Of a stretch of 64,000 nucleotides of DNA, positions 37,094 to 54,841 are shown piece after piece. The DNA is from Candidatus Thorarchaeota archaeon. GTDB taxonomy: Archaea > Asgardarchaeota > Thorarchaeia > Thorarchaeales > Thorarchaeaceae. The first letter of the stretch is position 1, and each line of letters starts with the position of its first letter. The notes beneath the pieces were generated by a model. That model saw only the letters and a program-made list of their open reading frames with translations, did not search any database and was not told where the DNA came from. Location of the stretch: contig CP070761.1 in assembly GCA_020348985.1 (NCBI GenBank), positions 862,324-926,323 of the forward strand, written 5' to 3'. The position numbers and the translations under genes were made by a program.

Positions 37094-37699
37094 GTGCTAC
37101 GCATGGAGAGAGCCCGCAAAGCGATGAAATGGGATAAAAGGTCCGAACATGTCAAGTTAGTCTTTATGCTTGGCATAGTAATCGGAGCCACGCTTGGCGG
37201 ATATGGTTTGTTCATGGTTGCGATGGGGACTACCAGTCCGCTCGTCGTTGTTACGAGTGAGTCGATGGTTCCCACACTGGAAAAGGGCGACATGTTGGTG
37301 CTACAGGCAAAACCACCAGACCAGATCTTCGTTGGAGACATCATTGTTTTTCAGGATACTGAGTGGCACACTGACGGGCCCGTTGTACATCGCGTGATTT
37401 CCGTTACGGTGGAGAATGGCACGTATTCTTACGAGACCAAAGGAGATGCCAACACACATCAGGATCCCGACAACAGGAGATACGATGAGGTAATTGGAGT
37501 TGTCATCTTCAGAGTACCATTTATCGGTCATGTAAGCTTGTTTTTGAGAACAACAGAGGGAATCATCTTCATGGTCATCCTCTTTGTTGTGATTCTTGTA
37601 TTACCCGAATTTGTTTGTAAGGACGATGAGACCACCTCAGAAGAGGAGGGAGACCCACCCTCTCCCGAGGTAGTAGTTTCTGACTCAGGCCAGTCATGA
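37094..37699 (+). CDS. Signal peptidase I, S26B (SEC11-type)
   Basis: SESMVPTL..GD, VVHRV, TKGDAN..D, VPFIG. Confidence 0.92.
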   Translation: MLRMERARKAMKWDKRSEHVKLVFMLGIVIGATLGGYGLFMVAMGTTSPLVVVTSESMVPTLEKGDMLVLQAKPPDQIFVGDIIVFQDTEWHTDGPVVHRVISVTVENGTYSYETKGDANTHQDPDNRRYDEVIGVVIFRVPFIGHVSLFLRTTEGIIFMVILFVVILVLPEFVCKDDETTSEEEGDPPSPEVVVSDSGQS

Positions 37700-38239
37700 A
37701 GAACCATAGAATTGAAGCGGTGTGAGTCCGAAAATCCCAGCGACCAGATTGCCTGGGAATGTGGCGATACCTGTGTTATACGCGGCAACGGCATCATTGT
37801 AGTCTAACTTTGCCTGAGTGATTCTATTCTCTGTGCCAGTGATCTCGTCAAAGAGCCCAATGTAAAGTGTACTTGCGTAAAGAGTCGGGTAATTCTCCTG
37901 AATTGCCACAAACAGCGTATTGAGTGCCAAGTTCAGTTGCGAAGAAACATTCGCCTGTTCGCTCGGACTCCCGTTAAGATTCAACCACTGCGTCCTAAGT
38001 GATGTTATCAGTGCAAGCGTTTCTTGCTCGAATTCTGTGTAATTCTCAACAGTCGTGACGAGCTGTGGAATCAAGTCGATCTTCCGTTCATACTGGACAG
38101 CAATCGCATTCCACTTGTTTTCCACATCTACCTTGAGCGTGACTAAGTTGTTGTAGGTCAAGATGATCGAGACACCTATTCCTCCACCTACGATAACAAG
38201 CCCCACAAGGACCAAGCATAGGACATTTCTTTGTGCCAT
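37694..38239 (-). CDS. lemA: LemA family protein
   Basis: YNNLV...W..I...YERKIDLIPQLV, ENYPTL, TENRI...YNDAV..YN....FP. Confidence 0.92.
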   Translation of the reverse strand: MAQRNVLCLVLVGLVIVGGGIGVSIILTYNNLVTLKVDVENKWNAIAVQYERKIDLIPQLVTTVENYTEFEQETLALITSLRTQWLNLNGSPSEQANVSSQLNLALNTLFVAIQENYPTLYASTLYIGLFDEITGTENRITQAKLDYNDAVAAYNTGIATFPGNLVAGIFGLTPLQFYGSS

Positions 38240-38251
38240 GTTTCCTCCCTC

Positions 38252-39109
38252 TCAGCCGTAACTAGTGTAACCTCCACCTGATGTCTTTCCGCCGCCACTC
38301 CTTACTCTGCCAGCTCCTGAAATCACAACCGTTCCGCCAAACGCAATCACAATAGCATAGAACAGCGTGGCCAGAGAGTTGTCCAACCACCACGCAAAGA
38401 GCGTCAATGTACCTATCATGACAAGCGGGATGATGCAATTGCCTCCTCTGACCACAGTGTAGTTTGCCCACGAGAAGACGAACGACAGGAACACACCGAT
38501 GACCGCCCCGGCTATGAGCGGATTTGCGTATGCCCAAGCCTGAAGTGCAGCAAGACCTATGGGATCTCCTTGTCCACTTACGACACTTGGGTCATCCATA
38601 AACTCGTAATAGAGAGCCAGAATTCCTTCATAGAGGCCCTCGTAGATGTACCCCCAGTCAATCCATGCAGTTACGTTGTCTCTGGCAATTCTACCAGCTT
38701 CAGCATCCGTGATAGCACCCTCCAACCCTCTTCCCACTTCGATTCTGAATTCGTATGCAAAATGCGTACTGTTGAGGTCTTCATAGTACAGGGTCAAGAG
38801 TAGACCATTGTTTACATCAGCCTTTCCTATTCCCCAATCATTGAAAAGAAGGTAGGAATAGCGATTGATATCATAACCCTCTAAATCTGATGTAGTAACA
38901 ATGAAGATCTCTACGGTAGTTTCTTCCTCGATTGCCTGACACAAGTCTTCGAGATCCATGTCCTCTTCAATAGTCAAGATAAGGGCCCAATCGTTAATCA
39001 TGTATCCTGTATAGGATGGAAGGGCCGGAGTTGGTCCAGACAGTGCGAAAACAACCGTACAAGCCAGCACAAGTACAAGTAGCACTCTTGCAGGTTTGCT
39101 GGTGGACAT
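38252..39109 (-). CDS. TPM domain membrane protein
   Basis: WGIGK..NNGLLL, RIEVGRGLEGAITD, Gly-rich tail GGGKTSGGG. Adjacent to lemA. Confidence 0.9.
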   Translation of the reverse strand: MSTSKPARVLLVLVLACTVVFALSGPTPALPSYTGYMINDWALILTIEEDMDLEDLCQAIEEETTVEIFIVTTSDLEGYDINRYSYLLFNDWGIGKADVNNGLLLTLYYEDLNSTHFAYEFRIEVGRGLEGAITDAEAGRIARDNVTAWIDWGYIYEGLYEGILALYYEFMDDPSVVSGQGDPIGLAALQAWAYANPLIAGAVIGVFLSFVFSWANYTVVRGGNCIIPLVMIGTLTLFAWWLDNSLATLFYAIVIAFGGTVVISGAGRVRSGGGKTSGGGYTSYG

Positions 39110-40015: not shown

Positions 40016-41431
40016 CTACTCTTCGCGCCACTTTGCCTCTTGCAAGTATTTCGGAATCCCGCTAGAGTCCTGAGGACCGACCTTAACGGTCCATCCAGTG
40101 GTCTCCTCAGTCTCGCCACTGATTCTTGCGGCCATACCTGGACTGATCAGAATCTTGTGATTGACCTTCTCCGCGACTCCGTACTCTTCCATAGACTCAG
40201 CGATTTTTTCGGCTGTGAGTTTACGGCCTGCAACCGCAGACTGAACGCTCATTCCCTCTGTATCGACAACAACGAGCCATGCGTCAACATTGCCTTGCTT
40301 TATGTCGCTTTCAACTGTGAAGTATGTCAATGCGAAGTTTGTCGTGTACATCACGGGAGAGTCAGGACCTGCACTGCCGAATTTCATTAGGCCTGCTTCT
40401 ACTGCTACAGGCTTGACTGGATCAGTGTAGAGGTTGCTTCTCAAGAAGGTCTGGGGAAGATTCGTCCACATGTCAATGCTGTGAGTGACAATGATGTCTG
40501 AATATCTGATTATCATCGCAGACCCCGCAAGAACCTCATTCCATTTTGTGAGCTCAGGAGCTTCGCCTTCACGATGGCCCGCCCAAACTGTGATAGGAGC
40601 AGCAAGCAAAGGATAACCGAAGAGCTCGTTGTCATCGACAGTGGCAGCTCTTCGAAGCTGTGTGAAGTTGTCAACAGTCGTGCCCATTCCGGCCTGAAAC
40701 ACACTGCCCGGATCCATTACAATGTCTTCTATCCCCATCGCACGCAGAGTTGAAACGAGAGTAGCTAGGTTGTCCAAGCTCCCTGGCGCATAGGCTACAA
40801 CAGGAAGATTGTGCTTCAGAGCTAGTTCGCCAACAGTCTCCCAGCTATCAGGAGTTGCCGCGTAAAGCAGCGGTCGCTTGTCTGCAGTAGCATTTGCCGC
40901 GGCCGAAAGCATAGCTGGGTCAAGAGAACACAGAATGATGGGCCAGTCGGTGGTCTCTTCCAGAAGCTTAGCCGCCTTCGAGAAAGTTGCAGGGTCCTTT
41001 GAAACACCACGTAGAGCTATGCCGTCCAATCTGAGATCCTGGCCGATGTAGACATAGGTCCAGTCTTCTATTTCCTTAACTCTCTTCTTGAATTCATCTG
41101 GACTCAGATTGTCGGCAACGTCCAAGAATATCGAAGTGGGATTCGAGTACCTCAGGTCATGTCTGTAAAGGACAAGCTTGCCACCAATTGCCGCAGCCTT
41201 TTCTCCTCGACCTATCGTTATCTCTCTAACCGGAGGACGAATCAGTTCTTGGAGATCGGCTAGCTTCTTTGCGTACTTATCCTCTCGAAACAGTGGATAG
41301 CAAAGATCCACTTTGATCGTGTATTCTGCAAGCTTGGTGGCAAAAGCCATGCAGTTGGCTTCACCACACTCCTGACAATTGGTACCGGGGAGGAGCGGAT
41401 AGATGTCAAGCGGTCCTGCTAGTTTCGCCAT
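40016..41431 (-). CDS. cdhE: ACDS complex gamma subunit (corrinoid Fe-S protein large subunit)
   Basis: LLPGTNCQECGEANCMAFA, YTDPVKPVAVE, TTNFALTYFTVESD, VGPQDSS. Confidence 0.96.
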   Translation of the reverse strand: MAKLAGPLDIYPLLPGTNCQECGEANCMAFATKLAEYTIKVDLCYPLFREDKYAKKLADLQELIRPPVREITIGRGEKAAAIGGKLVLYRHDLRYSNPTSIFLDVADNLSPDEFKKRVKEIEDWTYVYIGQDLRLDGIALRGVSKDPATFSKAAKLLEETTDWPIILCSLDPAMLSAAANATADKRPLLYAATPDSWETVGELALKHNLPVVAYAPGSLDNLATLVSTLRAMGIEDIVMDPGSVFQAGMGTTVDNFTQLRRAATVDDNELFGYPLLAAPITVWAGHREGEAPELTKWNEVLAGSAMIIRYSDIIVTHSIDMWTNLPQTFLRSNLYTDPVKPVAVEAGLMKFGSAGPDSPVMYTTNFALTYFTVESDIKQGNVDAWLVVVDTEGMSVQSAVAGRKLTAEKIAESMEEYGVAEKVNHKILISPGMAARISGETEETTGWTVKVGPQDSSGIPKYLQEAKWREE

Positions 41432-42628
41432 TCATGCTCCCTCCGGGATGGTTACTGTTGTCCAGTCAGCGTAATCCTCAGGTTTCACATCGCGTCTTTC
41501 CATCAACCAGTCAATCAAGTCATGCAGTGTCTTAATTGCGGCAGGATGCATCATCATGAATAGGTCATTTCCAGCCAACAGAAGTGCAAGCGCAGTGACG
41601 CTTTCCCAGATCGGTCCTCTGAGCTCTCTCGGGCCGAGCTCCGGATTCTTTAGCCAAGCTTCTCTCGCAGCCCATGCGTTTGTTGTTCCGGAGCTTATTG
41701 GGTATTGCAGCTCCGAATCACCCAAGAGGCCCGCCAGCCTCATCCTCTGCATCATTGTGAAAGCGTACTCGAGACCATAGCCAAGCGCAGCAGTTGTTGG
41801 ATCAATAACAATCTGCTCGGGTTTGAGCCATTCTATCAATCGTCGATTTAGCTCCTTCTGCTGATTAATGTCCAACGACGTCCATGAGAGAACAACCTGA
41901 TCGTGTCTCTTGGCAGCCTCTGCAACTGGTTCATAAACGTCAACAGTGGCCGAACAAAGCAAGGTCCGCTCTCCTTCCGCTACCTCTGCAGCCTTGGCAA
42001 GAACAGGACCATCCTTCTCAGGATCTCCAGCCGACCCAACTAGAATCGGAACTCTGACGGCTTGAAGCACTTCCTCAACAGTCTTGGCAGCCTCATTAGG
42101 CGAAGTATCCTTTATCTGCCTGTCTGTACTTATCAGATGGACCGTGATTACATCGGCTCCGAACTTGTCGACGCAGAGCTTTGCCCATTCCGCTGGATCG
42201 TGCATAACCTCCTTGTAGTGTGCCTTGACCACGCTTGCCAGAGAGATCGGCATGTCAAAGACATCAGCCGCAATGATTGGACGATTCTTTGGAGGGGCCT
42301 GGAAGAGATCCCAAGCTGGAGCTGTGTGACCCCCTATCGTTATACTGTTGCTCCGAGATCCTCCCTCTCCCTTCGTTGCACCGATAGTGATCTCATGGAT
42401 TGTGCCCGTGTATTGTGGAAGCTTGGCTTGGAACTTGGTAGGAATCAAGGAGGTAGGTCTCGATGGCAACGCTGCTCTTGCTGCAGCTTGTGCCAACTGA
42501 CGAACCATCGGACGCAGGGCTACCTTTAGCTCGTCAACCTCTATGGTGACGTTTTCCAGCTCCAACTCAACGAACTCGCCCAGGAGCTCATCGAGTGGGT
42601 TGCTACGTCCTTCGTCCTGCTCAGTCAT
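41432..42628 (-). CDS. cdhD: ACDS complex delta subunit (corrinoid Fe-S protein small subunit)
   Basis: DVFDM, DPAEWAK, DINQQKELN, DPTTAALGYGLEY, NAWAAREAW. Confidence 0.96.
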   Translation of the reverse strand: MTEQDEGRSNPLDELLGEFVELELENVTIEVDELKVALRPMVRQLAQAAARAALPSRPTSLIPTKFQAKLPQYTGTIHEITIGATKGEGGSRSNSITIGGHTAPAWDLFQAPPKNRPIIAADVFDMPISLASVVKAHYKEVMHDPAEWAKLCVDKFGADVITVHLISTDRQIKDTSPNEAAKTVEEVLQAVRVPILVGSAGDPEKDGPVLAKAAEVAEGERTLLCSATVDVYEPVAEAAKRHDQVVLSWTSLDINQQKELNRRLIEWLKPEQIVIDPTTAALGYGLEYAFTMMQRMRLAGLLGDSELQYPISSGTTNAWAAREAWLKNPELGPRELRGPIWESVTALALLLAGNDLFMMMHPAAIKTLHDLIDWLMERRDVKPEDYADWTTVTIPEGA

Positions 42629-44028
42629 TTCTTTTTGTCACCTTTTCCGATCCTCTTGATAATGACCCTTTCAGCGAATATCTTTGCATTCTTGAAGATG
42701 ATCTCAATTCCTCCGCCAACACCTGGCAGTGCAGCCGTGAATTCGCCAGGAACTGCGACATAATCTTCAGCCGCACCAACGACGGCAGGTAATGCTTCTT
42801 CTTCTTCAACCTCAACCCAACGCTCAGCGACAGGGTGATTATTCTCCCTTAGGAAAGCCTTGAGCTCGTCGATGGAAGATACATCCTTCTCTGTCGGAAT
42901 CTTGTCTCTAACTGATTCGGGTATGAAGTCATAGACTCGTTCCTTGATTGTATCAGGAACCCAGACAATTCGATCCCAACCGCCGTCAACCTGAAGGAAG
43001 CGTGGAGACCGCATGTATTCAACTGCAATCCCATGGAAGCCGGGTATCTGACGACCTCCGGCTGTGGAATCTGCCATGCTGGAGAACGGAAGACCGTTTA
43101 CAGTTTCTCCTTTGTAGTCTCTATGGACAACTCCAAGTCCGTCAACTTCAGGAATCACGAATGCGATTGCTTCGAAGCATCCGCAACTTGTGTGTGGCTT
43201 ATCAAAGGCACTGTAAAGCGCTACAGAGGTCACTTTGCCAAGTGACTTCTCCGCATAGGCCTGATTTACGCCCGTATACTCTCCAGTGAACTCGTCGATT
43301 GTATCGCCTTTCGGAATCGAATATAGCGGTCCCTTGGGATCAACGCGAGCAGCCGCTCGGCCGTCAAACCAGCTAATTGCGCCACAGTTTGCGTAGCGCT
43401 GGGGGGTTATTGTGCAAACGTGTGTTGGTGCAAATGATTGGCAGAGTGAGCATCCGTAGAATGTATCGACATCAGCATCGCTGAGACCCCTGGCTCGTTC
43501 GTCTCGGGCATTGTATCTTGCGACCGCCTCATCGTAGCGACTCGCAATCTCATCAGGGTCTGTGATGAAGGTGATCTGAATCTTCTCTATGATATTCATC
43601 TCACTTTTGAAGAGTCGGATGAGAACCTTGCCAAGATGCTCCAGAGTGTCGAAGCCTTTCTGAAACGATTTCTTGTTGAGCCGGATCCAAATGTCATAAC
43701 GCTGGTTCAGGTGCATCATACCCTCAACGAAGTTGACATACTCGTGGATTCGCCTCTCGATCACACCTTCAAGGTCTGGTTCGATTTGACTACCGGCTAC
43801 TTCAATGAAGATTCCAAAGGGATGAAAACTCCCTTCCTCCATGTCCTTCAGGTCAGGTCCTATAATCATGACCTTTTCGTCTTCGACTTCTCCTTCTTCT
43901 CGTGCAAGGGCAAGCTCGAACTTCTTCTCCATCTTCGGACCTCCGAGCTCGACATACATGTCTTTGCCTCTTACCCTCTCTCCTTCGTATACAACTCCAA
44001 CGTCAACGGGGATATCTTCGAATGACAT
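42625..44028 (-). CDS. cdhC: Acetyl-CoA synthase, ACDS beta subunit
   Basis: YEGERVR, ERRIH, CSLCQSFAPTHVC, HTSCGCFE (A-cluster ligands). Confidence 0.97.
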   Translation of the reverse strand: MSFEDIPVDVGVVYEGERVRGKDMYVELGGPKMEKKFELALAREEGEVEDEKVMIIGPDLKDMEEGSFHPFGIFIEVAGSQIEPDLEGVIERRIHEYVNFVEGMMHLNQRYDIWIRLNKKSFQKGFDTLEHLGKVLIRLFKSEMNIIEKIQITFITDPDEIASRYDEAVARYNARDERARGLSDADVDTFYGCSLCQSFAPTHVCTITPQRYANCGAISWFDGRAAARVDPKGPLYSIPKGDTIDEFTGEYTGVNQAYAEKSLGKVTSVALYSAFDKPHTSCGCFEAIAFVIPEVDGLGVVHRDYKGETVNGLPFSSMADSTAGGRQIPGFHGIAVEYMRSPRFLQVDGGWDRIVWVPDTIKERVYDFIPESVRDKIPTEKDVSSIDELKAFLRENNHPVAERWVEVEEEEALPAVVGAAEDYVAVPGEFTAALPGVGGGIEIIFKNAKIFAERVIIKRIGKGDKKK

Positions 44029-44574
44029 CTACTTTCCTCCTCCGACCATTTTTAGTATTTCATCTAGTTCATCATGCCAACGGTTCTCTTTCATGTTTGG
44101 GAACGACCATTTTGCATGTGGCTGATAATGCCTGCCAAGTGTTATCGCTGTCATGTGATCTCCGAAGTTCATCACAGCTGAGAGTAATGTCCACTGCATA
44201 TAGTATGGTATGCCATAGACCAGAATGAGATCAAATGGGCCGTTTCCCTTGGGTCCAGTCCATTCAGGGTCTTGCAGGTAGAATGCAAGCTCCATTGCTC
44301 CCATTCTGGAGACTTCGTCAAAGCCCTTCTCGAGAAACGCCTTGATTGCATTTCCGGTGGCTATGATGGGTATCTTCGCTGCCTTCGAGAACTCTATTGC
44401 ATAGTCAACCATTGTGCCCTTTCGATGCTTCTGCGTTAAAGCCTCGGATCCGATGACCAACACGGGCTTCTTTGCCTTCTTGATGTCTCTTTCAATCTGG
44501 GCAGCCTTCGTAATCGCCTTGGCACTGTCAGGTCCACAGATTTCTCCAGTCTGCCATGGTATTGCACGCATCAT
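44029..44574 (-). CDS. cdhB: ACDS epsilon subunit
   Basis: PWQTGEICGP, IKKAKKPVLVIG, DPEWTG, YQPHAKWSFPN. Lies between cdhA and cdhC. Confidence 0.93.
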   Translation of the reverse strand: MMRAIPWQTGEICGPDSAKAITKAAQIERDIKKAKKPVLVIGSEALTQKHRKGTMVDYAIEFSKAAKIPIIATGNAIKAFLEKGFDEVSRMGAMELAFYLQDPEWTGPKGNGPFDLILVYGIPYYMQWTLLSAVMNFGDHMTAITLGRHYQPHAKWSFPNMKENRWHDELDEILKMVGGGK

Positions 44575-44576
44575 AT

Positions 44577-46922
44577 TCAGTCCGCACCTCCTGACATAAT
44601 CATACGCTTGAGAAGCGTCGGGTCAGGTATTCTACGCTCTTCCCAATCGTTCTCTTTCATTTGACCCAGAATCTTGTCTTTTAGAGTGATTGGAATATCA
44701 GAGTCACGTCTGATGTACGTCCAGACGTCATCAGGGAAATAGCCGTAATACTTCTCATGGACATCGATGTAGTGACTTAGCTTAATTGAGCGGCCTTTGC
44801 TTGTGTCATTGGGCCTCAAACAGAGCTTTGCCGTCAAGACATTGCATTCTTCCACAGTCTCAGCTGCGTAGAAGAGATGCTCAGGACCAGGCGCGACCGA
44901 AACACGGTCTCCTGTACGGGCATCCCACACAAGCCAGTCTTTCTCCTTGTCAGCTCTTCCCATAAGCATTCGACGGTACTTCGAGCCATGGGGTCCCACG
45001 ATAACTGGGACTCCGAGTCTCCAGAAGCCAGCTGCAATCGAAGCCGCTTTCTGTGACATTGCACCCCAAGAGATTCCTACTGCACCAACTCTGTTGTAGA
45101 TGTAGTCAGCAATCTCTTCGTAGTTGCCTCTAAGATTCCGCTTGGCAAAGATGGCTGCGATCTTGATGGCCGCTCCAGCAATGTGTGAGTTGGAGACACA
45201 AGACCCCACATTGACGACCATTCCGGCGTCGAACTCTCCATCACGCCTCTCGTAGATCGATTTACCTGCCTCATCCAGGACTTGTCCTGCACTCATAGCT
45301 GCACATCCTGAGGCGACTATGATGTACCTTCTACTGGCGAACTCCTCCATCATGTGGTGTACATCTTCACCACCGCCAGGGTAGTTTGCACAGCCAACAT
45401 GAGCAATGACTCCAGGTATCTCACCGAACACAATCGGTTGTCCAACTCGGCGGATTTCTGTGTCCTGAATAGCACCTCTTCCTGTTCTAACCATGAACTT
45501 CTCCTTGTCACATGATGGTTCAGCGGCCTTGACCATCCAACTATGTAGCAGATAGTCGTTAGGACAGGCAGACTCACATCGTGCACACCCAATGCAGTTG
45601 TGATAGATTTCCTCCAGAGGAGCGAAGTTACCTTGTTGAGCCGCTAAGACTGCCTCTTGGACTGGTTGGTCATTAGGACAGGCACGAACGCACTCCATGC
45701 ATTTCTTGCAATCCGCTGCCATCTTCTTGATCTTCGCCTTGCTGGGCAGGATTCCTTTCTTCTTGCGCTTGGGTTTGAGAGCGATGGCAACCTTGGCTGC
45801 AATCTCACCGACCTTCTTGTGGTCGCTCATGTAGACACCAGGTATCTTACCTGAAACAAGATCGTCAATTATCTCATCCACAGGATCATCTGACCTGTCA
45901 GGTAAGCCCATCACAGCCTTGTCACTTGTCGAAATGACTGCGGCCTTGACTTTCTGTGCTTCCTCTACGACGTTTGTGCGGACGCACTGCTCGTCAACGA
46001 TGATGACATCGGCTTTTCCGCTCCTGATGAATCTCAGTTGCCATGAAATCGGGCCAACGACCTTGGCATTGGGGTCTCTCCGAGTGATATCCCAGGCAGT
46101 GCAACAGATTCCACCGACTTCGATCTCATTACCGAGTTTCTTCTCAGTGATGTAGTCAGTAACAGCAGCGGCAGGAACGATATTGTGTCCGATGCACAGA
46201 ACAGTTGCCTTCTCAGGATCCAAATTACCGAAGCCGGCTTCAACAAGCGGCGCCTCTGGATCAGCCTGCGGGAAGTCTAACGTCGATATCTGAGCGAGGT
46301 CACCTATCTCGAGAGCTAGATGATCTGTCATTCCTGCGTGGAATACTTTACTCTCAAAATCCATCCAGTGTCCTTCTTGACCGGTTGCAGTCGCAGACAG
46401 AAGATGGGCCAGCTGACTCTCTGCGTAATCAAGAACTGCACTTGCATCTTCCAGCGTTCTCGGCCTCATTCCTGTTATCAAACGCGTAATCGGAGCATGG
46501 ATCTCAGTGCCAGGGCCTTGAATCAGTGGGGCCCTTGGACCATATTCGTCGATAAGATGGTCAACCAAATGTCTCGCATGTGCAAGATGTGCCGAGGTTC
46601 CAATGTTGGCAGCAGCTAATACAATCCTAGACTGTTGAGCCTGCATATTGATCCCACACGCACCCTTCTTGTTGCCTGTTAGGTCGCATTTTCCAAAGGT
46701 ACACAAGCAACACACCTGACAGTATGGCATGTAGGAGGGCTGGTACCTTGACAACAACTTGTGATCCCATGATCTGAGTGTTGTAGGTCCAGGCATTGGA
46801 GTCGGACCCATAGGTTCGTCCCAATCGTCATCAACTAGTTCGCCAATACTAATCTCAAGGCCTCTGAATCTGCCAAGACCGGTGGTTGCTTCATCACTTT
46901 TGATTCGCACTCTCTTCTTCAT
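44577..46922 (-). CDS. cdhA: CO dehydrogenase, ACDS alpha subunit
   Basis: EPMGPTP, CCLCTFGKC, GICCTA, DEQC, CKKCMECVRACP, CIGCARCESACP, GCANYP, GSCVSN. ATG 46922 is more likely than 47015. Confidence 0.97.
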   Translation of the reverse strand: MKKRVRIKSDEATTGLGRFRGLEISIGELVDDDWDEPMGPTPMPGPTTLRSWDHKLLSRYQPSYMPYCQVCCLCTFGKCDLTGNKKGACGINMQAQQSRIVLAAANIGTSAHLAHARHLVDHLIDEYGPRAPLIQGPGTEIHAPITRLITGMRPRTLEDASAVLDYAESQLAHLLSATATGQEGHWMDFESKVFHAGMTDHLALEIGDLAQISTLDFPQADPEAPLVEAGFGNLDPEKATVLCIGHNIVPAAAVTDYITEKKLGNEIEVGGICCTAWDITRRDPNAKVVGPISWQLRFIRSGKADVIIVDEQCVRTNVVEEAQKVKAAVISTSDKAVMGLPDRSDDPVDEIIDDLVSGKIPGVYMSDHKKVGEIAAKVAIALKPKRKKKGILPSKAKIKKMAADCKKCMECVRACPNDQPVQEAVLAAQQGNFAPLEEIYHNCIGCARCESACPNDYLLHSWMVKAAEPSCDKEKFMVRTGRGAIQDTEIRRVGQPIVFGEIPGVIAHVGCANYPGGGEDVHHMMEEFASRRYIIVASGCAAMSAGQVLDEAGKSIYERRDGEFDAGMVVNVGSCVSNSHIAGAAIKIAAIFAKRNLRGNYEEIADYIYNRVGAVGISWGAMSQKAASIAAGFWRLGVPVIVGPHGSKYRRMLMGRADKEKDWLVWDARTGDRVSVAPGPEHLFYAAETVEECNVLTAKLCLRPNDTSKGRSIKLSHYIDVHEKYYGYFPDDVWTYIRRDSDIPITLKDKILGQMKENDWEERRIPDPTLLKRMIMSGGAD

Positions 46923-47125
46923 TTTCTTGTGCAATCCCCGTGGATGATGGTCGCGTCGGTTACAGCGCGCCATAAATGGTTTGTGAACCGTCAAGAACGA
47001 CCATGAAGTCAGCATATTAAGTTACAGTTCGTAACCCAAAGTGAGAAAAATGAGCTCCATGTCATGTTTGTACGAATGATAAGCTATGGAATGTAAGGAA
47101 TATGCAACCGCGCAAAGTCGTCGTT

Positions 47126-47920
47126 TCAGCGCAGGTTACTACGCAGGTGATCCTTAATCTTCCGCAACTCTGACATTCCCGGTGATTCGGGATTAAGATC
47201 AATCGGGGCCACGCCTTTACGGTCTGCTTCTTTTATGGTCTCGTCCTGAGGGATAATGCCAAGGAGAGGAACACCTTCTTCATCCACTCGACGACGAATC
47301 ATCTCCTCATCTTCATACGTGGCCACCTTGTTGCCTATCGCCAAGATGCGTCCAACATCAATATCTTCTGCCAGTTTCCGAATCTTTGCGAGTATGTCAA
47401 GTGACCTTCGCCCAGGTTCTGCAACAACTAAGAGTGCATCCATGCCTCTAGTCGTACCACGTCCCAGATTCTCAACGCCTGCATCCATATCCATGACGAA
47501 GGCTTCATCGGTTCCCAATATCAGATGTCGCATTAGTTGCTTGAGTAGAGTTGCGGATGGACACATGCAGCCAGAGTCACCTATGTCCACGGTCCCAGCA
47601 ACTAGAAGACTAACATTGTCTGGACCTGAAACGGCGAACTTCTCGGCCAAATCGTCCACAATCGGATTCATCTTGAAGTACATCTTGTATGATTGCGCCG
47701 GATCAATCTCCAGACGTTCCTTAAGCAGCTCCTCATTTTCAGTAAGTGGAACAATCTGTGCGGCGACCTCTTCGGAGATTCCAAGTGCTGACCAAAGGGT
47801 ATAGCTAGGATCAGCATCTACTGCGAGAATTCTAAGACCGTCTTGACCTAATAGCCTTGCAAGCGTCCCTGCAACAGTTGTCTTTCCGACGCCACCTTTG
47901 CCCGCAACTGCAATCTTCAT
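47126..47920 (-). CDS. cooC: Second CooC nickel-insertion ATPase
   Basis: MKIAVAGKGGVGKTT, DADP, SGCMCP, DMDAGVENLGRG. Confidence 0.92.
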   Translation of the reverse strand: MKIAVAGKGGVGKTTVAGTLARLLGQDGLRILAVDADPSYTLWSALGISEEVAAQIVPLTENEELLKERLEIDPAQSYKMYFKMNPIVDDLAEKFAVSGPDNVSLLVAGTVDIGDSGCMCPSATLLKQLMRHLILGTDEAFVMDMDAGVENLGRGTTRGMDALLVVAEPGRRSLDILAKIRKLAEDIDVGRILAIGNKVATYEDEEMIRRRVDEEGVPLLGIIPQDETIKEADRKGVAPIDLNPESPGMSELRKIKDHLRSNLR

Positions 47921-47946: not shown

Positions 47947-49230
47947 TTAATCTCTTACCCTAACGGCATGCAGAAGTCTTCTGAGAACCTCGGTTTCCGA
48001 CAACTGGCCGTTTCCATCTTTGTGGAATGGAATAAGCTGAATGGGTTCTTGATCAACACGCAACATTGTCTCTTCTGTTAGGACCATGTTGGAACCCGCA
48101 GGAATGAACACGGTCGCTCGAGAGGGTGTGAGACCGTCAGGAGGTCCGATGTAGATAAGAGGCAAGCTGGACATACAGGCTCCTAGCTCTCCAGGTAGCG
48201 TCGCAACTATGTCAGATCCGACCACAAGCGCGGCATCGAATCTCTCCCCCAGCAGCAGACTATGCATATTCTGTCCTTCACTATTCGAGGCGCTCCCAGT
48301 CGAGTAGTCGACGGCTGATGGGAATCCCGTTGATCCATTCAACGTTTGCATTGCACCAATCGTGTTCGTATCGGAAGCGACCGGCATAGCATGGGCAGCT
48401 CGACCGTTCTTACGAATGGATTCGATCAACTCCTTTAGTGCCATCAAGTTCTCTGAAGCATAACCAGAAGCGAATAGGCCGCTTCCGTAGAAGAAGACTG
48501 TACTATCTGAGTTCTTGAGCTTATTTGTGAGACTGATGAGTTCGACAGCTGGAATTCCTGCGACCTCTTCTACAATCGATGATGTTCCGGTCAGCTCACC
48601 ACTTATTGCTCTCATTATGTCAGCATCGGAACCGAATGGAATCACCAGCCGATGATTTGCTATCTTCATAGTCTCGGTCTCACGAACATCTACAACCACG
48701 ACTGCTCTGCTTTCAACTCCCTCAGGTATTCTTTCACCTTTGGGAAGTACGGAGAACCTGCTTACGTGTCTGTGACTCGACTCTGTGGGGTTTGAGCCCC
48801 AGTATATCACGACTTCAGCATTGTTTCTAGCATCATCCAAAGTGTAGTCGATGTTCATATCATGCAGCTCGCTAGAGAAAGCTCGAAGAGCTCCGAGACT
48901 TGCTTGTGTATCGAAGAACGCCTTGCAACTTGCAGCAATGTCAAGACCCACCTTGATAGCATCATTAGTGGATCGTGTCCAGCCATAGACCAAAGGCCGC
49001 TTTGCTTCCCTTAGGATTTTGGCCGCTGCCGCCACAGCCTCATCCAAAGAAGCTGAAACAGACTTGCCACTCTTCCTGATAGAGGATTTCGATTCATTTC
49101 TCTTGAGGGCCACTTCCAAGCACTCATGACCGAGACGACAGAGTCCAAGTGACTTCAATTCGCCCTCTTTATACTCGGCCTTGACATCATCACAGAGAAG
49201 CGAACAACCGTCACATACAAGATCCTTCAC
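47947..49230 (-). CDS. fwdB: Formylmethanofuran dehydrogenase subunit B homolog with degenerate active site (FhcB-like)
   Basis: CDGCSLLCDD..CRLG, AKRPLVYGW, VIYWGSNP...RHVSR are present. The canonical ASVCHG and RGHYN motifs are replaced by ASLGAL and ASDTN. Confidence 0.85.
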   Translation of the reverse strand: MKDLVCDGCSLLCDDVKAEYKEGELKSLGLCRLGHECLEVALKRNESKSSIRKSGKSVSASLDEAVAAAAKILREAKRPLVYGWTRSTNDAIKVGLDIAASCKAFFDTQASLGALRAFSSELHDMNIDYTLDDARNNAEVVIYWGSNPTESSHRHVSRFSVLPKGERIPEGVESRAVVVVDVRETETMKIANHRLVIPFGSDADIMRAISGELTGTSSIVEEVAGIPAVELISLTNKLKNSDSTVFFYGSGLFASGYASENLMALKELIESIRKNGRAAHAMPVASDTNTIGAMQTLNGSTGFPSAVDYSTGSASNSEGQNMHSLLLGERFDAALVVGSDIVATLPGELGACMSSLPLIYIGPPDGLTPSRATVFIPAGSNMVLTEETMLRVDQEPIQLIPFHKDGNGQLSETEVLRRLLHAVRVRD

Positions 49231-49239
49231 TCGATCACC

Positions 49240-49713
49240 TCACCAAATCTCGATAGCGTCGGTGCAACAGTACTGCTCACATACTCTACAATTGAGACGG
49301 TCCGGTGGGAATCTGCGGCATTTTTGGAGATTGATTATCTTCGATATGCCATTTTCCACACGAAAGACGGTCTCTTCGGTCATTGCAGCCTTTCCAAGAC
49401 TTGTCGGCGGTTCGGCTGCAACATCAACTGGACACACTACAACACAGTTTCCGCAGCCTGTGCATTTCTCTTCATCAAGCTTGATACCAGTTTCTTCGGC
49501 CGTTAGCATGGGAGCGACAAGTTCTCTCAGTTTTGCAAGATTCTCCTCGAAACCCGATTCAAGCAAGGGAGGACAGTCATCTGGTTGGACGTCTCCTAGG
49601 GCTAGCTTCGTCGCAAAGGCCATGCAGGTCTTGGGCTCACATAGTCTGCAGTTTGTCTTTGGAAGCAGATTGTAAAGCTCCATCGGGTTTAGTTTCACGT
49701 TCTTTTTCACCAT
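49240..49713 (-). CDS. fwdG: FwdG/FmdG-type ferredoxin with N-terminal Fe-S domain
   Basis: LLPKTNCRLC...CMAFA...CPPL, CTGCGNCVVVCP, CRR...CRVCEQYC. Directly upstream of fwdB. Confidence 0.8.
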   Translation of the reverse strand: MVKKNVKLNPMELYNLLPKTNCRLCEPKTCMAFATKLALGDVQPDDCPPLLESGFEENLAKLRELVAPMLTAEETGIKLDEEKCTGCGNCVVVCPVDVAAEPPTSLGKAAMTEETVFRVENGISKIINLQKCRRFPPDRLNCRVCEQYCCTDAIEIW

Positions 49714-49868: not shown

Positions 49869-52340
49869 GTGAAAAATGTGAGTCCTAGCAAGAAAGGCAA
49901 GAAGAAGGCGCTTACCGACAAGACAGCTCTCTTCATTTGCCGCTGCGGCTCGAACATTTCTGGTGTAATTGATGTTGATTCTCTTCGTGACGAATATGAA
50001 GCCAAAGGAATCCCAATAGTCATCGTGGATGATCATCTTTGCTCTGAGCAGGGCGTTCAGACTTTCGTTGACGCTATCAAGAAGAGCAAGGCCGAGAAAG
50101 TTGTCATGGCAGGATGTTCTCCACTGTTACACTGGGACTTGTTTTCTGAAGCTATGGCAGAAGCGGGGCTTGATGCAGGCCATCTTCAAATCGCGAACAT
50201 CCGCGAGCAAGGAAGCTGGGTGCATTGGGATAAACCAAAGACGGCTACTTCGAAGGCCTCCGCAATCATCGACACAAGCATCTCACAGGTACAGGATTCT
50301 GAACCAATTGCCAAGCATTCTGTTCCTGTGACTCAACGAGTTTTGGTAGTCGGAGGGGGAGTTGCAGGACTCACATCAGCCCTCACAATGGCGGATGCTG
50401 GAATCGAGACTGTGATTGTTGAGAGGGAAGGATTCCTAGGAGGCCACATGGCGAAATGGGACAAGCTCTTCCCTACTTCAGATTGCAGCATTTGTATCCT
50501 GGGCCCCGTGATGACACGTGTCGCTCGCCATCCGTTGATTCGAGTGATTACCAGGGCTGAACTTGAGTATGTTCGAGGCTCAGTTGGGAGCTACATAGCA
50601 TCGATAAAGCAGCATGCTCGCTATGTCGATCTGGAAACATGCACCGGGTGTAACAAGTGTATCGAGGTCTGCCCAGTTGATGTCCCAGATGAATACAACT
50701 ATGGTCTTGGAAAGAGAAAGGCCATGGTCCGTCCGTCGAGTGATACTGTCCCTCTTGCACCCTACATAGACATGGAGAATTGCATAGGTTGCCAAAGCTG
50801 CTCTGGCGTCTGCGAGCCGAAAGCCCTGAGATACGACGATGAAGATAACCATGAGACCATTGAGTTCGGCGCGATTGTTGTAGCTACGGGATTCAAGGCA
50901 TTTGATGCGTCTCTGGTGGAGGAGTTTGGCTATGGTGAGAATCCGGATGTGGTCACCTCTCTCGAGTTTGAAAGAATGGCTAATCCAGAAGGACCGACAG
51001 GTGGCAGGATAGTAAGTCCATCGACAGGTAAACCCCCAAAGCAAGTCGTGTTTGTGGAATGCGTTGGCAGTCGATCGGAGAGATTCAACAGACCGTATTG
51101 CAGCCGAGTTTGCTGTACAGCATCTGTCAAAGAAACACTGCAATTGAAAGAACAGATACCTGACAGTGAAGTCTACGTCTTCTACACGGACATGAGAGTG
51201 TTCGGGAAGGGATACGAAGAACTGTATGAAAGAGCATCCAATGACCATGGCGTCCGATTCGTTCGAGGAGCAGTAGGTGACATCATCCTTGATCCAGTAT
51301 CAGGGAAGACCACGATTAGAGGAGAGGACACACTTCTTGGGAGGATGATTGATGTTGAGGCGGACCTTGTAGTATTGATGGTGGGCATGGAACCAGATCA
51401 CAGCAATGCGTACCTTTCGAAGCTGCTCCGGATTCCACTTGATGAAAATGGATTCTTCCTTGAGGACCATCCGAAGCTCAGGCCGAGTAGTACATCTTCT
51501 AAAGGCATTGTAATCGCTGGAACTGCGCAAGGTCCGAAGGACATCGCAGACGCTGTTGCTCATGCCGGGCTCGCATCATCAAGAGTTTTGACTCTGTTAT
51601 CTCGCGGAGATGTTATCACTGACGCGTGCGTTCCATCATTCGATTCTGAGCTATGCATTGGATGCAAGCTCTGTGAACAGAACTGCTCTCCAAACGCAAT
51701 CAGAGTCAGAGACAGCGTGGCTGAGATAAACACTGCTGCCTGTAAGGCCTGTGGTGCTTGTGTTGCTGCTTGTCCCTCGGGTGCATTGGACCTGCCGTGT
51801 CTCACGAACGAGCAACTACTGAAGGCCACAAGGACTGCAGTTGAGCGAAATCCGTTAAGGCCCGCTATAGTGGGGTATCTTTGCAGATGGTGCGCCTATA
51901 GCGCTGCGGACAAAGCTGGCATATCTAGGACCACGTACCCTGCCAACATCATTCCAATCTTAGTACCGTGCACAGGCCGCCTGAATTCGCAGACAGTCCT
52001 TACGGCATTTGCTGAGGGTGCTGATGGTGTTGCAGTAATAGGATGTTACGAACAGGATTGTCATTACAGATCGGGGGCAAAGAATGCCCGAGAGAGAATG
52101 GAGAACCTCAGAAGTGTCATCATGGAAGCAGGTATTGACGGTCGAAGACTGTACTTCGGAAGTGTATCTGCATCAGAGGGAAGCCACTACGCTGACCATG
52201 TTAGACGGTTCGTGAGTCTGGTTAAGAAACTTGGACCTCTTGGTTCTGAGTTGAGTGAGGAAACAGTAGCATTGTATGGAAAAGAGCCTGATGTTGCCAT
52301 CACCTCCAATCCTCACGGCGAAGGAGGAGAGGGGGATTAG
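49869..52340 (+). CDS. hdrA: Heterodisulfide reductase subunit A fused to MvhD
   Basis: CRCGSNI, GCSP, GGGVAG, DCSICI, inserted 2x[4Fe-4S], LEFER, CVGSR..YCSRVCC...K, C-terminal ferredoxin, then MvhD motifs LCRWCAY, VPCTGR, GC...CHY. Confidence 0.95.
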   Translation: MKNVSPSKKGKKKALTDKTALFICRCGSNISGVIDVDSLRDEYEAKGIPIVIVDDHLCSEQGVQTFVDAIKKSKAEKVVMAGCSPLLHWDLFSEAMAEAGLDAGHLQIANIREQGSWVHWDKPKTATSKASAIIDTSISQVQDSEPIAKHSVPVTQRVLVVGGGVAGLTSALTMADAGIETVIVEREGFLGGHMAKWDKLFPTSDCSICILGPVMTRVARHPLIRVITRAELEYVRGSVGSYIASIKQHARYVDLETCTGCNKCIEVCPVDVPDEYNYGLGKRKAMVRPSSDTVPLAPYIDMENCIGCQSCSGVCEPKALRYDDEDNHETIEFGAIVVATGFKAFDASLVEEFGYGENPDVVTSLEFERMANPEGPTGGRIVSPSTGKPPKQVVFVECVGSRSERFNRPYCSRVCCTASVKETLQLKEQIPDSEVYVFYTDMRVFGKGYEELYERASNDHGVRFVRGAVGDIILDPVSGKTTIRGEDTLLGRMIDVEADLVVLMVGMEPDHSNAYLSKLLRIPLDENGFFLEDHPKLRPSSTSSKGIVIAGTAQGPKDIADAVAHAGLASSRVLTLLSRGDVITDACVPSFDSELCIGCKLCEQNCSPNAIRVRDSVAEINTAACKACGACVAACPSGALDLPCLTNEQLLKATRTAVERNPLRPAIVGYLCRWCAYSAADKAGISRTTYPANIIPILVPCTGRLNSQTVLTAFAEGADGVAVIGCYEQDCHYRSGAKNARERMENLRSVIMEAGIDGRRLYFGSVSASEGSHYADHVRRFVSLVKKLGPLGSELSEETVALYGKEPDVAITSNPHGEGGEGD

Positions 52341-52344
52341 TCCA

Positions 52345-53700
52345 ATGGAGAGACAAGATGTCTCCGTAGGCGAGAGACCTGTGGTTTCCATGGACGTAAC
52401 TGAAGCAAAAGTACGCTTGGAATGGAATACGTCTCTTCTGCTGCGAAGACTTGATTATGATATCGACAAGTGTGTTGGTTGCAGTCTATGTCTTCCCTGT
52501 CCGTGGGAGGCAATTACTCTGGGACCGGTTGCTGAGACCGCGGCCGGACGTATTGAGGGGGCTCCTCTTGTGATGGTGGATCCAGACATCTGTACTTTCT
52601 GCGGTCTGTGTGATTCGGCCTGCGTGTTCAAGGCCTTTGATGCTTCATATGAGGGCGAGTCTGCGATCAATGAGTTCGTTAGGATTGATGGGGTCCATGT
52701 TGTTGACAATGAGAAGTGTGCTCCGTGTCTCCTTTGTGCTAAAGTCTGTCCAACTGGAGCTCTTGAGGTTGACGTGAAGGTCGATCATAAGAAGGACCTT
52801 GTAGTCTACAGGGGCGACGTCTCGGCTGAAGGTACAATCAAGATCGATGAGGACAAATGCTCCTATTGTGGACTGTGTGAGATTCTGTGTCCCGAGGCCA
52901 TCAAGATATTCTGGTCAGAGTCAGCCGAACCACCAGATTTCAGACCTGCCGTTGGGATTCGCGTCGTAGAGGAGGAATGTGACTACTGCGGTCTGTGCGA
53001 AGGTATCTGTCCCGATGACGCGATCAAAGTTGAATGCACAAAATCGAGTTCGAGGAAAATAACTGAGCCCAAGATAAGTGGGGAGCTTCGTCACGATGAC
53101 GAGAAGTGTGTGAAATGTTCTCTCTGTGCAGGCGTTTGTCCCTATGATGCAATCAAGGTGGAGAAGCCCTTCTCAGGCGAAGTGAAAGTCCAGCATCTTG
53201 AACGATGTGATCCCACAGGATGTGTCAATTGCTTCAACATTTGTCCTGTCAAAGCAATCTACCCCACGGGCACCGAAAGTAAGTTGGAGGTACTCGACGG
53301 AAACTGCATCTACTGCGGCGCCTGTGAAAACGCATGCCCAGACGAAGTCCTCGTAGTGTCAAGAAGTGGATACAAACTAGACGAACTTGAAAGAGCAAGA
53401 GAGTGGGAGAAAGCCAGGAAGCACTTCTTTGATGCAGTTGTTGGCATCGAAAAGACACCTAGCGGCCTCTTCGAGCGAGACTTGAACGTAGTTGAAGCAA
53501 GGCAACGACCTCAGGACGTTGCTATTGACGATGAGTGGGACACAGAGGATGGTGTTAGAGCCGCAGCCAAGAACCTAGTTGGCTCAGTAAGCCGACTGCT
53601 GAGTCGGGACCCCAGCCTTCAGATGCATTTGGAAAGAGGCAGAACTGAAAAGGTCATTGAGAAGATCAAGGAGCAGAGTAAAGGCTCTCCAAAGAAGTGA
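52345..53700 (+). CDS. fwdF: FwdF-type polyferredoxin (8 x [4Fe-4S])
   Basis: Eight CxxCxxCxxxC-type motifs. Start at ATG 52345, right after the hdrA stop. Confidence 0.85.
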   Translation: MERQDVSVGERPVVSMDVTEAKVRLEWNTSLLLRRLDYDIDKCVGCSLCLPCPWEAITLGPVAETAAGRIEGAPLVMVDPDICTFCGLCDSACVFKAFDASYEGESAINEFVRIDGVHVVDNEKCAPCLLCAKVCPTGALEVDVKVDHKKDLVVYRGDVSAEGTIKIDEDKCSYCGLCEILCPEAIKIFWSESAEPPDFRPAVGIRVVEEECDYCGLCEGICPDDAIKVECTKSSSRKITEPKISGELRHDDEKCVKCSLCAGVCPYDAIKVEKPFSGEVKVQHLERCDPTGCVNCFNICPVKAIYPTGTESKLEVLDGNCIYCGACENACPDEVLVVSRSGYKLDELERAREWEKARKHFFDAVVGIEKTPSGLFERDLNVVEARQRPQDVAIDDEWDTEDGVRAAAKNLVGSVSRLLSRDPSLQMHLERGRTEKVIEKIKEQSKGSPKK

Positions 53701-54064
53701 CTTCTTCGCTGCTCCGGGAAACAGATACCGGCAGCCCGTGAAGCTGGGCAATGCCTTCATCTCCGTTTACGCGGGCCAAGTGCAAAGACCAGGGCCCTCG
53801 TGGCATGGTCGCGAGGCCTTCTTTCGTTCTCTCACTTTGAAAAGCTTGAACATTGATTCTCTTTGAACTAGTCTTGATTGAGACAACATCCCCATCTTTC
53901 AGACCAATTCTCTGAAAATCGCTCCTGTTAAGCCAGACAAGTGCGGCTGCCATTCGATAGCTCTCAGACGCTGTGTTAGCTACGGACTTGATATCTGCCT
54001 CAAATGAGTGCACGATTACCAGCTTGAGCTGGACTTCTGGAAAGAGGAAGTCGCCCAGGGACAT
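53666..54064 (-). CDS. fwdD: Formylmethanofuran dehydrogenase subunit D homolog, degenerate
   Basis: Y..AAA.VWLN..D...IGLKDGDVVSI...MPRGPW...PVSV...EEV fits the FwdD/molybdopterin-dinucleotide-binding fold. Confidence 0.75.
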   Translation of the reverse strand: MSLGDFLFPEVQLKLVIVHSFEADIKSVANTASESYRMAAALVWLNRSDFQRIGLKDGDVVSIKTSSKRINVQAFQSERTKEGLATMPRGPWSLHLARVNGDEGIAQLHGLPVSVSRSSEEVTSLESLYSAP

Positions 54065-54193: not shown

Positions 54194-54841
54194 TTGATGA
54201 TGGCAGACGACATTCTAGAATACTGGATGAGTCTCGCTCGAGAACTAGCATCAAGATTCAACGTAGAAGAATTCGATACAAGTTCAGCATTCTGGAGTTG
54301 GGACAATTTCAAAGACGATATTCGCACACTGAAAGGAAGATTGGGAGTTGGCAATGATTTCATTGATTTCCTTGGATACCACGTAGATTTCGAATCAGGT
54401 GAAACAACTGATACGTTGGCGGGCATTCCGGGAAGGACCTCCAAGCTTGTCCCATTTCTTTACTACTATAGCAAGGCAAAGGATGTCGGCATTGCAGACG
54501 AATGGGAGAAGTTCTCAGCACTGAAAGGTTCGTGGGCCTGTAGACATTCATTTGATGAACAAGATCTTGAGACTCTGAGAAGGAAGTACGTTGAGGACAA
54601 AGAAAAGCTATTCGAGACTCTTGAGAAGCTCGGCGGAGAAAGGGCTGGTCACGGTGATGATGCCTATGTTGTATCATTTCTGCCAATGGTGAAAGTGCTT
54701 CTTGTATTTGAGGAGGAGGATGAGGAGTTCCCTGCGACCGCAAGACTGCTGTTCGACAAGAATTCGATTTTCTATGAACCACACGAAATGCTGGGTTCAA
54801 TCGGGTGGATGATGGCTAGCAGAGTTGCGATTACAGGTTGA
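54194..54841 (+). CDS. DUF3786 domain protein
   Basis: FLG, LYYY, W..F..L.G, GDDAY..SFLP, EEDEEFPATARLLFD. Confidence 0.8.
   Translation: MMMADDILEYWMSLARELASRFNVEEFDTSSAFWSWDNFKDDIRTLKGRLGVGNDFIDFLGYHVDFESGETTDTLAGIPGRTSKLVPFLYYYSKAKDVGIADEWEKFSALKGSWACRHSFDEQDLETLRRKYVEDKEKLFETLEKLGGERAGHGDDAYVVSFLPMVKVLLVFEEEDEEFPATARLLFDKNSIFYEPHEMLGSIGWMMASRVAITG

Follow-up and report, generated by a model that had tools for sequence, protein, structure and literature searches.

A 64,000-nucleotide stretch of contig CP070761.1 from a Candidatus Thorarchaeota archaeon (assembly GCA_020348985.1, positions 862,324–926,323; here ‘the window’) encodes, on the reverse strand at 47947–49230, a 427-residue paralog of FwdB, subunit B of formylmethanofuran dehydrogenase. 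This protein keeps the four-cysteine [4Fe-4S] motif of FwdB but is without Cys118, His119, Arg288 and His290, the residues that form the FwdB active site. It belongs to a real and conserved family that, judged from its sequences, is a catalytically stripped ortholog of an Asgard protein, FwdB2, and its most likely function, to which we would assign a probability of about 0.6, is that of an electron relay or scaffold in an Fwd-derived HdrA/polyferredoxin module. A literature search found no paper describing this Asgard family.

The open reading frame (ORF) starts with GTG and has no internal stops. Searched with phmmer against PDB sequences, its product matched five solved FwdB/FmdB chains end to end at approximately 30% identity (M. 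wolfeii FwdB 5t5i_B, E = 1e-56, residues 2–424 against 5–426; 8rja_B, 3e-49; 7bkb_H, 4e-33), with no other notable match. In the alignment to 5t5i_B, ‘aslGAlra’ lies under ‘asvCHgps’ and ‘pvASDtntig’ under ‘pmRGHynvtg’: the W/Mo-ligating Cys118 is replaced by Gly113 (codon GGA, 48892–48894, reverse strand), His119 by Ala114, Arg288 by Ala and His290 by Asp. The segments concerned are DTQASLGALRA, encoded at 48912–48880 on the reverse strand opposite DNTASVCHGPS of FwdB, and PVASDTNTIG (48355–48384, reverse strand) opposite PMRGHYNVTG. A preliminary description made from the sequence alone had proposed both substitutions, at coordinates right to within a few bases, and the alignment bears them out, with the motifs replaced in place and not merely shifted. 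It had also reported correctly that the ORF is full-length, as the extent of the FwdB alignment confirms, and that the CxxCxxxC...C motif is retained; C6, C9, C13 and C31 are all present, and invariant (100%) among the 19 tabulated representatives of the family. An in-frame TGA, said to be absent, was looked for in the uninterrupted ORF without being found, and the protein is therefore not a selenocysteine variant.

The fold is that of FwdB, with MopB domains I–III. An AlphaFold2 model (pLDDT 95), a check that the preliminary description had called for, superposes on FwdB/FmdB structures with TM-scores of 0.91–0.94 and root mean square deviations of 2.2–2.5 Å. The protein scores 308.5 bits against the NCBIfam profile TIGR03129, under the cut-off of 327.8, and a Pfam scan assigned it to no family, PF00384 included. 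A contig from a sediment metagenome of an independent study (run X3) is identical over 48725–48917, spanning the Gly codon, so the substitution at the cysteine position is not an assembly error. Among the metagenome contigs, X1 covers almost the whole stretch and X3 part of it, while matches to X4 and X11 are limited to a conserved ferredoxin segment; these comparisons (Logan) test sequence identity only.

The same residue states recur well beyond this genome. A search of 5.8 billion proteins returned >100 clusters at 38–70% identity to the paralog, with source names from Thorarchaeota, Promethearchaeota and other Asgard taxa; canonical FwdBs surfaced only at ∼30% identity. Of 103 full-length homologs, 94% have Gly at the cysteine position and the others Ala or Ser, never Cys, and neither Arg nor His occurs at the R-G-H positions in any of them, a uniformity indicating that the substitutions are not due to chance. 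Ninety-five alignment columns are conserved at ≥90% among the 103 sequences, and the family spans two GTDB families of Asgard archaea (f1 and f12). The host genome, a single 3.16-Mb contig, also carries a canonical fwdD-fwdB-fwdA locus, the FwdB of which scores 541 bits against TIGR03129 and has SVCHG and PMRGHFNV; every paralog-bearing genome checked likewise has a canonical FwdB with SVCHG and PMRGH.

For the closest genome pair, the FwdB-like gene has a ratio of non-synonymous to synonymous substitution rates (dN/dS) of 0.15, similar to the 0.19 of the FwdD-like gene in this cluster; the accompanying FeS-FwdG, CooC and polyferredoxin genes have 0.024, 0.05 and 0.029, respectively. Compared over one set of 28 genome pairs, copies of the paralog are on average 51% identical and those of canonical FwdB 73%, the paralog evolving about twice as fast as the canonical copy in the same genomes, and the loop equivalent to FwdB residues 306–322 is deleted in 58% of members. 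The paralog is under purifying selection, although with constraint relaxed in the way that a loss of catalysis would lead one to expect. The suggestion of a maintained pseudoenzyme made in the preliminary description is thus supported as regards CO2 reduction, by the occurrence in two GTDB families, the conserved columns, the dN/dS value and the presence of canonical FwdB alongside.

To place the family, trees were calculated from 150 relatives (exhaustive HMMER search of 50%-identity representatives), three FhcBs and three FdhF outgroups. Rooted FastTree and IQ-TREE phylogenies comprise three parts: a grade of canonical FwdBs, an archaeal ‘group 2’ (support 96) and a bacterial clade (support 99) holding the FhcBs. 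The paralog family (support 100; here the Thor family) is nested in group 2, next to sequences that bear Cys-His (support 99), and forcing it together with FhcB cost 111 log-likelihood units (approximately unbiased [AU] test, p = 4.9e-5). Profile comparison gave an E-value of 1.6e-12 for FhcB 6s6y_B versus 4e-148 for FwdB, and the AlphaFold2 model had a TMq of only 0.67–0.68 to FhcB 6S6Y versus 0.91–0.94 to FwdB/FmdB chains. Separate clades, rejection by the AU test and distance in profile and structure together indicate that the catalytic residues of this FwdB paralog were lost independently of FhcB and the Fhc lineage, and the preliminary description, which had cast the protein as intermediate between these two proteins, fails here as phylogeny. 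Nor is the supposed intermediate state a rare one, as the majority of the 156 representatives (50% identity) have no Cys together with four FeS cysteines.

FhcB itself is described as a scaffold, and in M. extorquens it is without the whole FeS domain (PMC6926001). The FhcBs used for comparison come from replicons of Paraburkholderia, Azospirillum and Thiodictyon, where they are encoded in true fhcBADC operons; these (L054:4845–6323, L055:4980–6332 and L056:4968–6266) keep CxxCxxxC...C and have lost Cys118. The M. extorquens protein is an exception, not representative of the FhcB family.

The nearest clade of the Thor family (support 99) consists of group 2 FwdB homologs of Asgard archaea and Thermoproteota (for example P0107, P0110 and P0123; loci L053, L071 and L072). 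Here ‘group 2’ module denotes the combination of an FeS-FwdG fusion, FwdB2, FwdD2, an FwdF-type polyferredoxin and HdrA-MvhD. Group 2 FwdBs share with the Thor family a TGCSLLCDD-type N-terminus, an FeS-FwdG fusion partner, a D2-type FwdD and the absence of Arg288; they differ from it in keeping Cys-His (or Cys-Gln), and some have an FwdA homolog in the operon, which in Asgard family f7 (L053) reads FwdD2 / FwdA homolog / FeS-FwdG / FwdB2. The first metal motif of that FwdA homolog is N-A-H, versus H-S-H in canonical FwdA. The group 2 FwdB subfamily (L053:6929–10719; also L052, L071, L072 and L078) has PM[SAIV]GH and is always accompanied by the FeS-domain/FwdG fusion. The closest parallels are found in families f21 and f15, in which HdrA-MvhD, polyferredoxin, FwdD2, FeS-FwdG and FwdB2 lie beside cdh genes with Cys-His intact (present by alignment at the f15 locus L071), with neither FwdA nor FwdC and without CooC next to FwdB2.

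These f15 and f21 proteins keep all 13 positions that are changed in the Thor family (in the numbering of the host genome's canonical copy: C121G, H122x, G123x, A146G, D147E, H160S, N280R, G292x, H293E/D, D369G, P384x, G389I/M and E391x). A number of the new residues are in turn conserved (Gly113 94%, Glu139 95%, Arg273 93%, Gly362 100%), and from the sequences it looks as if the site for metal and pterin had been remodelled in concert, within a subunit that is orthologous. On this reading the paralog is the Thorarchaeota ortholog of the FwdB2 of the Asgard group 2 Fwd-type module.

The composition of the gene cluster bears on what such a subunit might do. The gene for an FeS-FwdG fusion (157 aa; 49240–49713, reverse strand) ends 9 nt upstream of the FwdB-like start and is syntenic in 18/18 loci; its product joins an N-terminal iron-sulfur (FeS) domain of the type found in CFeSP (corrinoid iron-sulfur protein)/CdhE (PF04060) to a C-terminal FwdG-like 2×[4Fe-4S] ferredoxin (9sfi_U, 5e-11; 5t5i_G, 4e-8; 4djd_C, 1e-6). 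Divergent from this pair are two further syntenic genes on the forward strand, encoding an 823-residue HdrA-MvhD fusion (49869–52340), with a complete HdrA (5odc_A, 1.7e-179) fused to MvhD (MvhD chains, 1e-28 to 9e-32), and a 474-residue FwdF/FmdF-type polyferredoxin (52276–53700; 5t5i_F, 1.1e-43; 7bkb_K, 1.9e-43). Convergent with the polyferredoxin gene and overlapping it is one for a 132-residue FwdD-like protein corresponding to MopB domain IV (53666–54064, reverse strand). Its conserved neighbour encodes a DUF3786 protein (54194–54841, forward strand), found beside the FwdD-like gene in 12 related loci at 56–62% identity.

In the other direction, a gene for a CooC-type P-loop ATPase, of the kind associated with nickel insertion into carbon monoxide dehydrogenase (CODH), lies at 47126–47920 (reverse strand); at all loci it is found downstream of the FwdB-like gene, and in most of them it is the next gene. 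Beyond it is the operon for acetyl-CoA decarbonylase/synthase (ACDS), or CODH/acetyl-CoA synthase (CODH/ACS), which occupies 40016–47015 on the same strand (cdhA, 44577–47015; cdhB, 44029–44574; cdhC, 42625–44028; cdhD, 41432–42628; cdhE, 40016–41431). LemA-family and TPM-domain genes (37694–39109, reverse strand) directly follow the MinD/CooC-like gene ending this operon, and a few kb downstream of it is a gene for a 381-residue protein with an N-terminal PF04060 FeS domain and an otherwise unmatched sequence (35835–36980, reverse strand).

Gene order is common to 18 genomes of the two GTDB families. One strand reads FeS-FwdG, FwdB-like, CooC and then, where the contig reaches and except in genome G118, CdhA-B-C-D-E; on the opposite side HdrA-MvhD and polyferredoxin are divergent, with the FwdD-like gene convergent behind them. 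In the f12 loci (L045–L051), 2–5 kb of unrelated genes, among them those for an amidohydrolase and a membrane methyltransferase-like protein, separate CooC from CdhA, and between HdrA and polyferredoxin there is a 574-residue ORF that matches nothing in Pfam. Neither FwdA nor FwdC is present at any of the 18 loci, and the single FwdA (C1:2789389–2791080) and single FwdC (C1:1782004–1782819) of the host genome both lie outside the cluster, which in the window also has no Ftr and no FhcA-, FhcC- or FhcD-type partner. Elsewhere in the host genome, two of approximately eight HdrA-like loci (C1:2640177–2641511 and C1:5908–7230) each have a single in-frame TGA and may encode selenocysteine-containing HdrA paralogs.

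A MopB fold without its metal ligand is therefore maintained by selection (dN/dS 0.15) within an electron-transfer gene set of fixed synteny, comprising HdrA-MvhD and FwdF-, FwdG- and FwdD-type proteins. A relay or scaffold is suggested because these partners are homologous to redox subunits of solved Hdr-Fwd supercomplexes, in which wiring through FmdF is established (PMC13580544), because the arrangement is conserved in 18 genomes while the only FwdA and FwdC lie elsewhere, and because dead MopB scaffolds have precedents in FhcB (PMC6926001) and in the Molybdop protein of HdrA2 clusters (PMC12054007). Having lost its W/Mo ligand, both catalytic residues (His and Arg) and some of the pterin-site signature in domain III, the FwdB-fold protein would no longer reduce CO2, and presumably holds no metal, but it would still carry the N-terminal [4Fe-4S] cluster. 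Together with the FwdD-like protein it may hold FwdG- and FwdF-type iron-sulfur wires onto the flavin-based bifurcation unit HdrA-MvhD, in a complex to whose wire it would add one cluster; the electrons might end, speculatively, on a diffusible ferredoxin or on the neighbouring CODH/ACS. For the paralog, this evidence favours an electron relay or scaffold over an enzyme.

Certain observations weigh against this reading, some concerning the cofactor and others the connection to CODH/ACS. The domain-II motifs are kept at the level of active enzymes (WGxNP 0.89, DxRxT..D 0.95, FxGxG 1.00), so a bound dinucleotide or pterin is possible, and N295/G298 are kept at 0.97, whereas operon-proven FhcBs score 0.11–0.33 on the same motifs. 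Moreover, arsenite oxidase is a MopB enzyme that works without a protein ligand to the metal (PMC10100899). The paralog might accordingly still be a (metallo)pterin protein of altered chemistry, binding one or both guanine dinucleotide cofactors, with a metal held either without a protein ligand, as in arsenite oxidase, or by an exogenous one, and serving a reaction other than CO2 reduction or acting as a redox centre; retention of the FwdD-like capping domain fits this, as does conservation of the replacement residues, which suggests a remodelled site over simple decay. Yet 100% of members have Gly in place of D369, and P384, G389 and E391 have disappeared (0.09); the domain-III segment to which these positions belong is conserved in every other group, further Cys-less groups among them, and lost in the Thor family alone. 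His119, Arg288 and His290 are all gone too, the evolutionary rate is about doubled, and PF00384 misses the paralog while matching Cys-bearing group 2 relatives, all of which makes a surviving metallopterin site unlikely, if a serious contender. A TGR-type motif is absent from the FwdD-like protein but likewise from FwdD2 of Cys-bearing group 2 operons, and hence its absence is not a mark of cofactor loss.

As to CODH/ACS, the module could in its boldest form be an undescribed electron-bifurcating supercomplex, in which the emptied Fwd core, re-used for docking and relay, would pass low-potential electrons from HdrA directly into CODH/ACS, for reduction of CO2 to CO instead of formyl-methanofuran synthesis; this extension is doubtful. 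In family f1 the paralog occurs in 17 genomes, 17/17 of which have Thor-type CdhA, and f1 genomes with canonical FwdB but without CdhA have no paralog, but this co-occurrence could reflect a single deletion removing both adjacent genes. Other Asgard families, too, have canonical fwd and hdrA genes close to cdhA, a pattern suggestive of an old Wood-Ljungdahl supercluster from which adjacency to cdh may simply be inherited, and one genome (G118; L044, G118:C126) has the module and CooC with no cdh gene within 7.5 kb, its cdhA being on another contig. In view of the adjacency, the possible supercluster and the G118 locus, direct wiring into CODH/ACS is offered as a hypothesis, not a result. The same facts can be turned another way: instead of belonging to an Hdr-type complex, the paralog might work alongside CooC as an accessory or assembly factor of CODH/ACS, say in maturation or the delivery of clusters. 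It is upstream of CooC at 18/18 loci, G118 retains CooC adjacency even without cdhA, and CdhA is present in all f1 genomes that bear it. This is improbable, as the closest Cys-His relatives are part of the same HdrA/polyferredoxin/FwdD/FwdG module with CooC not beside FwdB2, all other module genes encode Fwd/Hdr-type electron-transfer proteins, and co-occurrence may merely follow adjacency. To our knowledge there is no precedent for a MopB-fold maturation factor. Far less credible still is the idea that the paralog is an archaeal form of FhcB, or a stage on the way to it, and scaffolds a complex of formyl-methanofuran hydrolase and formyltransferase. Both proteins have lost Cys118, His119 and Arg288 (PMC6926001) and TIGR03129 covers both, but an FhcB-lineage identity was rejected on the AU test, on the nesting in archaeal group 2, on profile and fold scores that both favour FwdB, and on gene context, the genome having no second FwdA or FwdC, the cluster no Ftr, and Fhc no counterpart of the FwdD-like partner. 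Finally, the faster evolution relative to neighbours and canonical FwdB, and the frequent deletion of the 306–322 loop, might be read as signs of a decaying, functionless copy; intact frames in >100 clusters from two families, purifying selection, the conserved columns with their invariant FeS cysteines and the fixed synteny make a pseudogene next to untenable, and it was rejected.

With FwdB/FmdB (5T5I_B, 8RJA_B, 7BKB_H; TIGR03129) the paralog shares end-to-end homology, fold, CxxCxxxC...C and the nucleotide-type motifs of domain II, and its companions are, as in Hdr-Fwd supercomplexes, HdrA-MvhD and proteins of the FwdD, FwdF and FwdG types. It is unlike them in having no Cys/Sec (selenocysteine) ligand, His119, Arg288 or His290, a degenerate domain-III segment, a TIGR03129 score below cut-off, no PF00384 match, no FwdA or FwdC in the cluster and an approximately twofold rate. 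From group 2 it departs by its 13 changed positions, while the HdrA-MvhD/polyferredoxin module beside cdh genes in f15 and f21 is the same. FhcB (M. extorquens 6S6Y_B; fhcBADC) is a further FwdB-derived scaffold, but one of a separate bacterial clade whose partners in aerobic methylotrophs are FhcA, FhcC and FhcD, for which the paralog cluster has no genes; its nucleotide-type and pterin motifs are lost, and it has no FwdD-type fourth domain or partner (PMC6926001). The paralog, in contrast to FhcB, has stayed full-length. The FdhA-like Molybdop protein of type II HdrA clusters of Methanosarcinales and anaerobic methanotrophic archaea (ANME), a dead protein proposed in Methanosarcinales to be a structural subunit (PMC12054007), and NuoG/Nqo3 of complex I are likewise structural MopB parts, without the Cys ligand, of electron-transfer or bifurcating complexes, and offer what is, by analogy, the closest functional parallel. 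They differ in belonging to an FdhA/FdhG-like MopB lineage, with HdrBC/FdhB partners and other hosts, and with no CODH/ACS link described. A survey of MopB evolution recorded FwdB hits in 83 Asgard metagenome-assembled genomes and briefly touched on members without the Cys (PMC10100899).

Eukaryotes have no closer known relatives than the Asgard archaea, and how low-potential electrons are handled in their Wood-Ljungdahl pathway bears on models of a syntrophic, hydrogen-dependent lifestyle. The family described here is a non-catalytic MopB subunit, a type previously known in other lineages. Because routine annotation names such proteins ‘formylmethanofuran dehydrogenase subunit B’, metabolic reconstructions would miscount the paralogs as a second Fwd. 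Two versions of the module exist in one phylum: the Thor version would have given up CO2 reduction while keeping its attachment to HdrA and its adjacency to CODH/ACS, and sister lineages have an active-looking one. As a natural before-and-after pair, they would let one ask which purposes, besides feeding the tungsten site, are served by the iron-sulfur wires of Hdr-Fwd supercomplexes.

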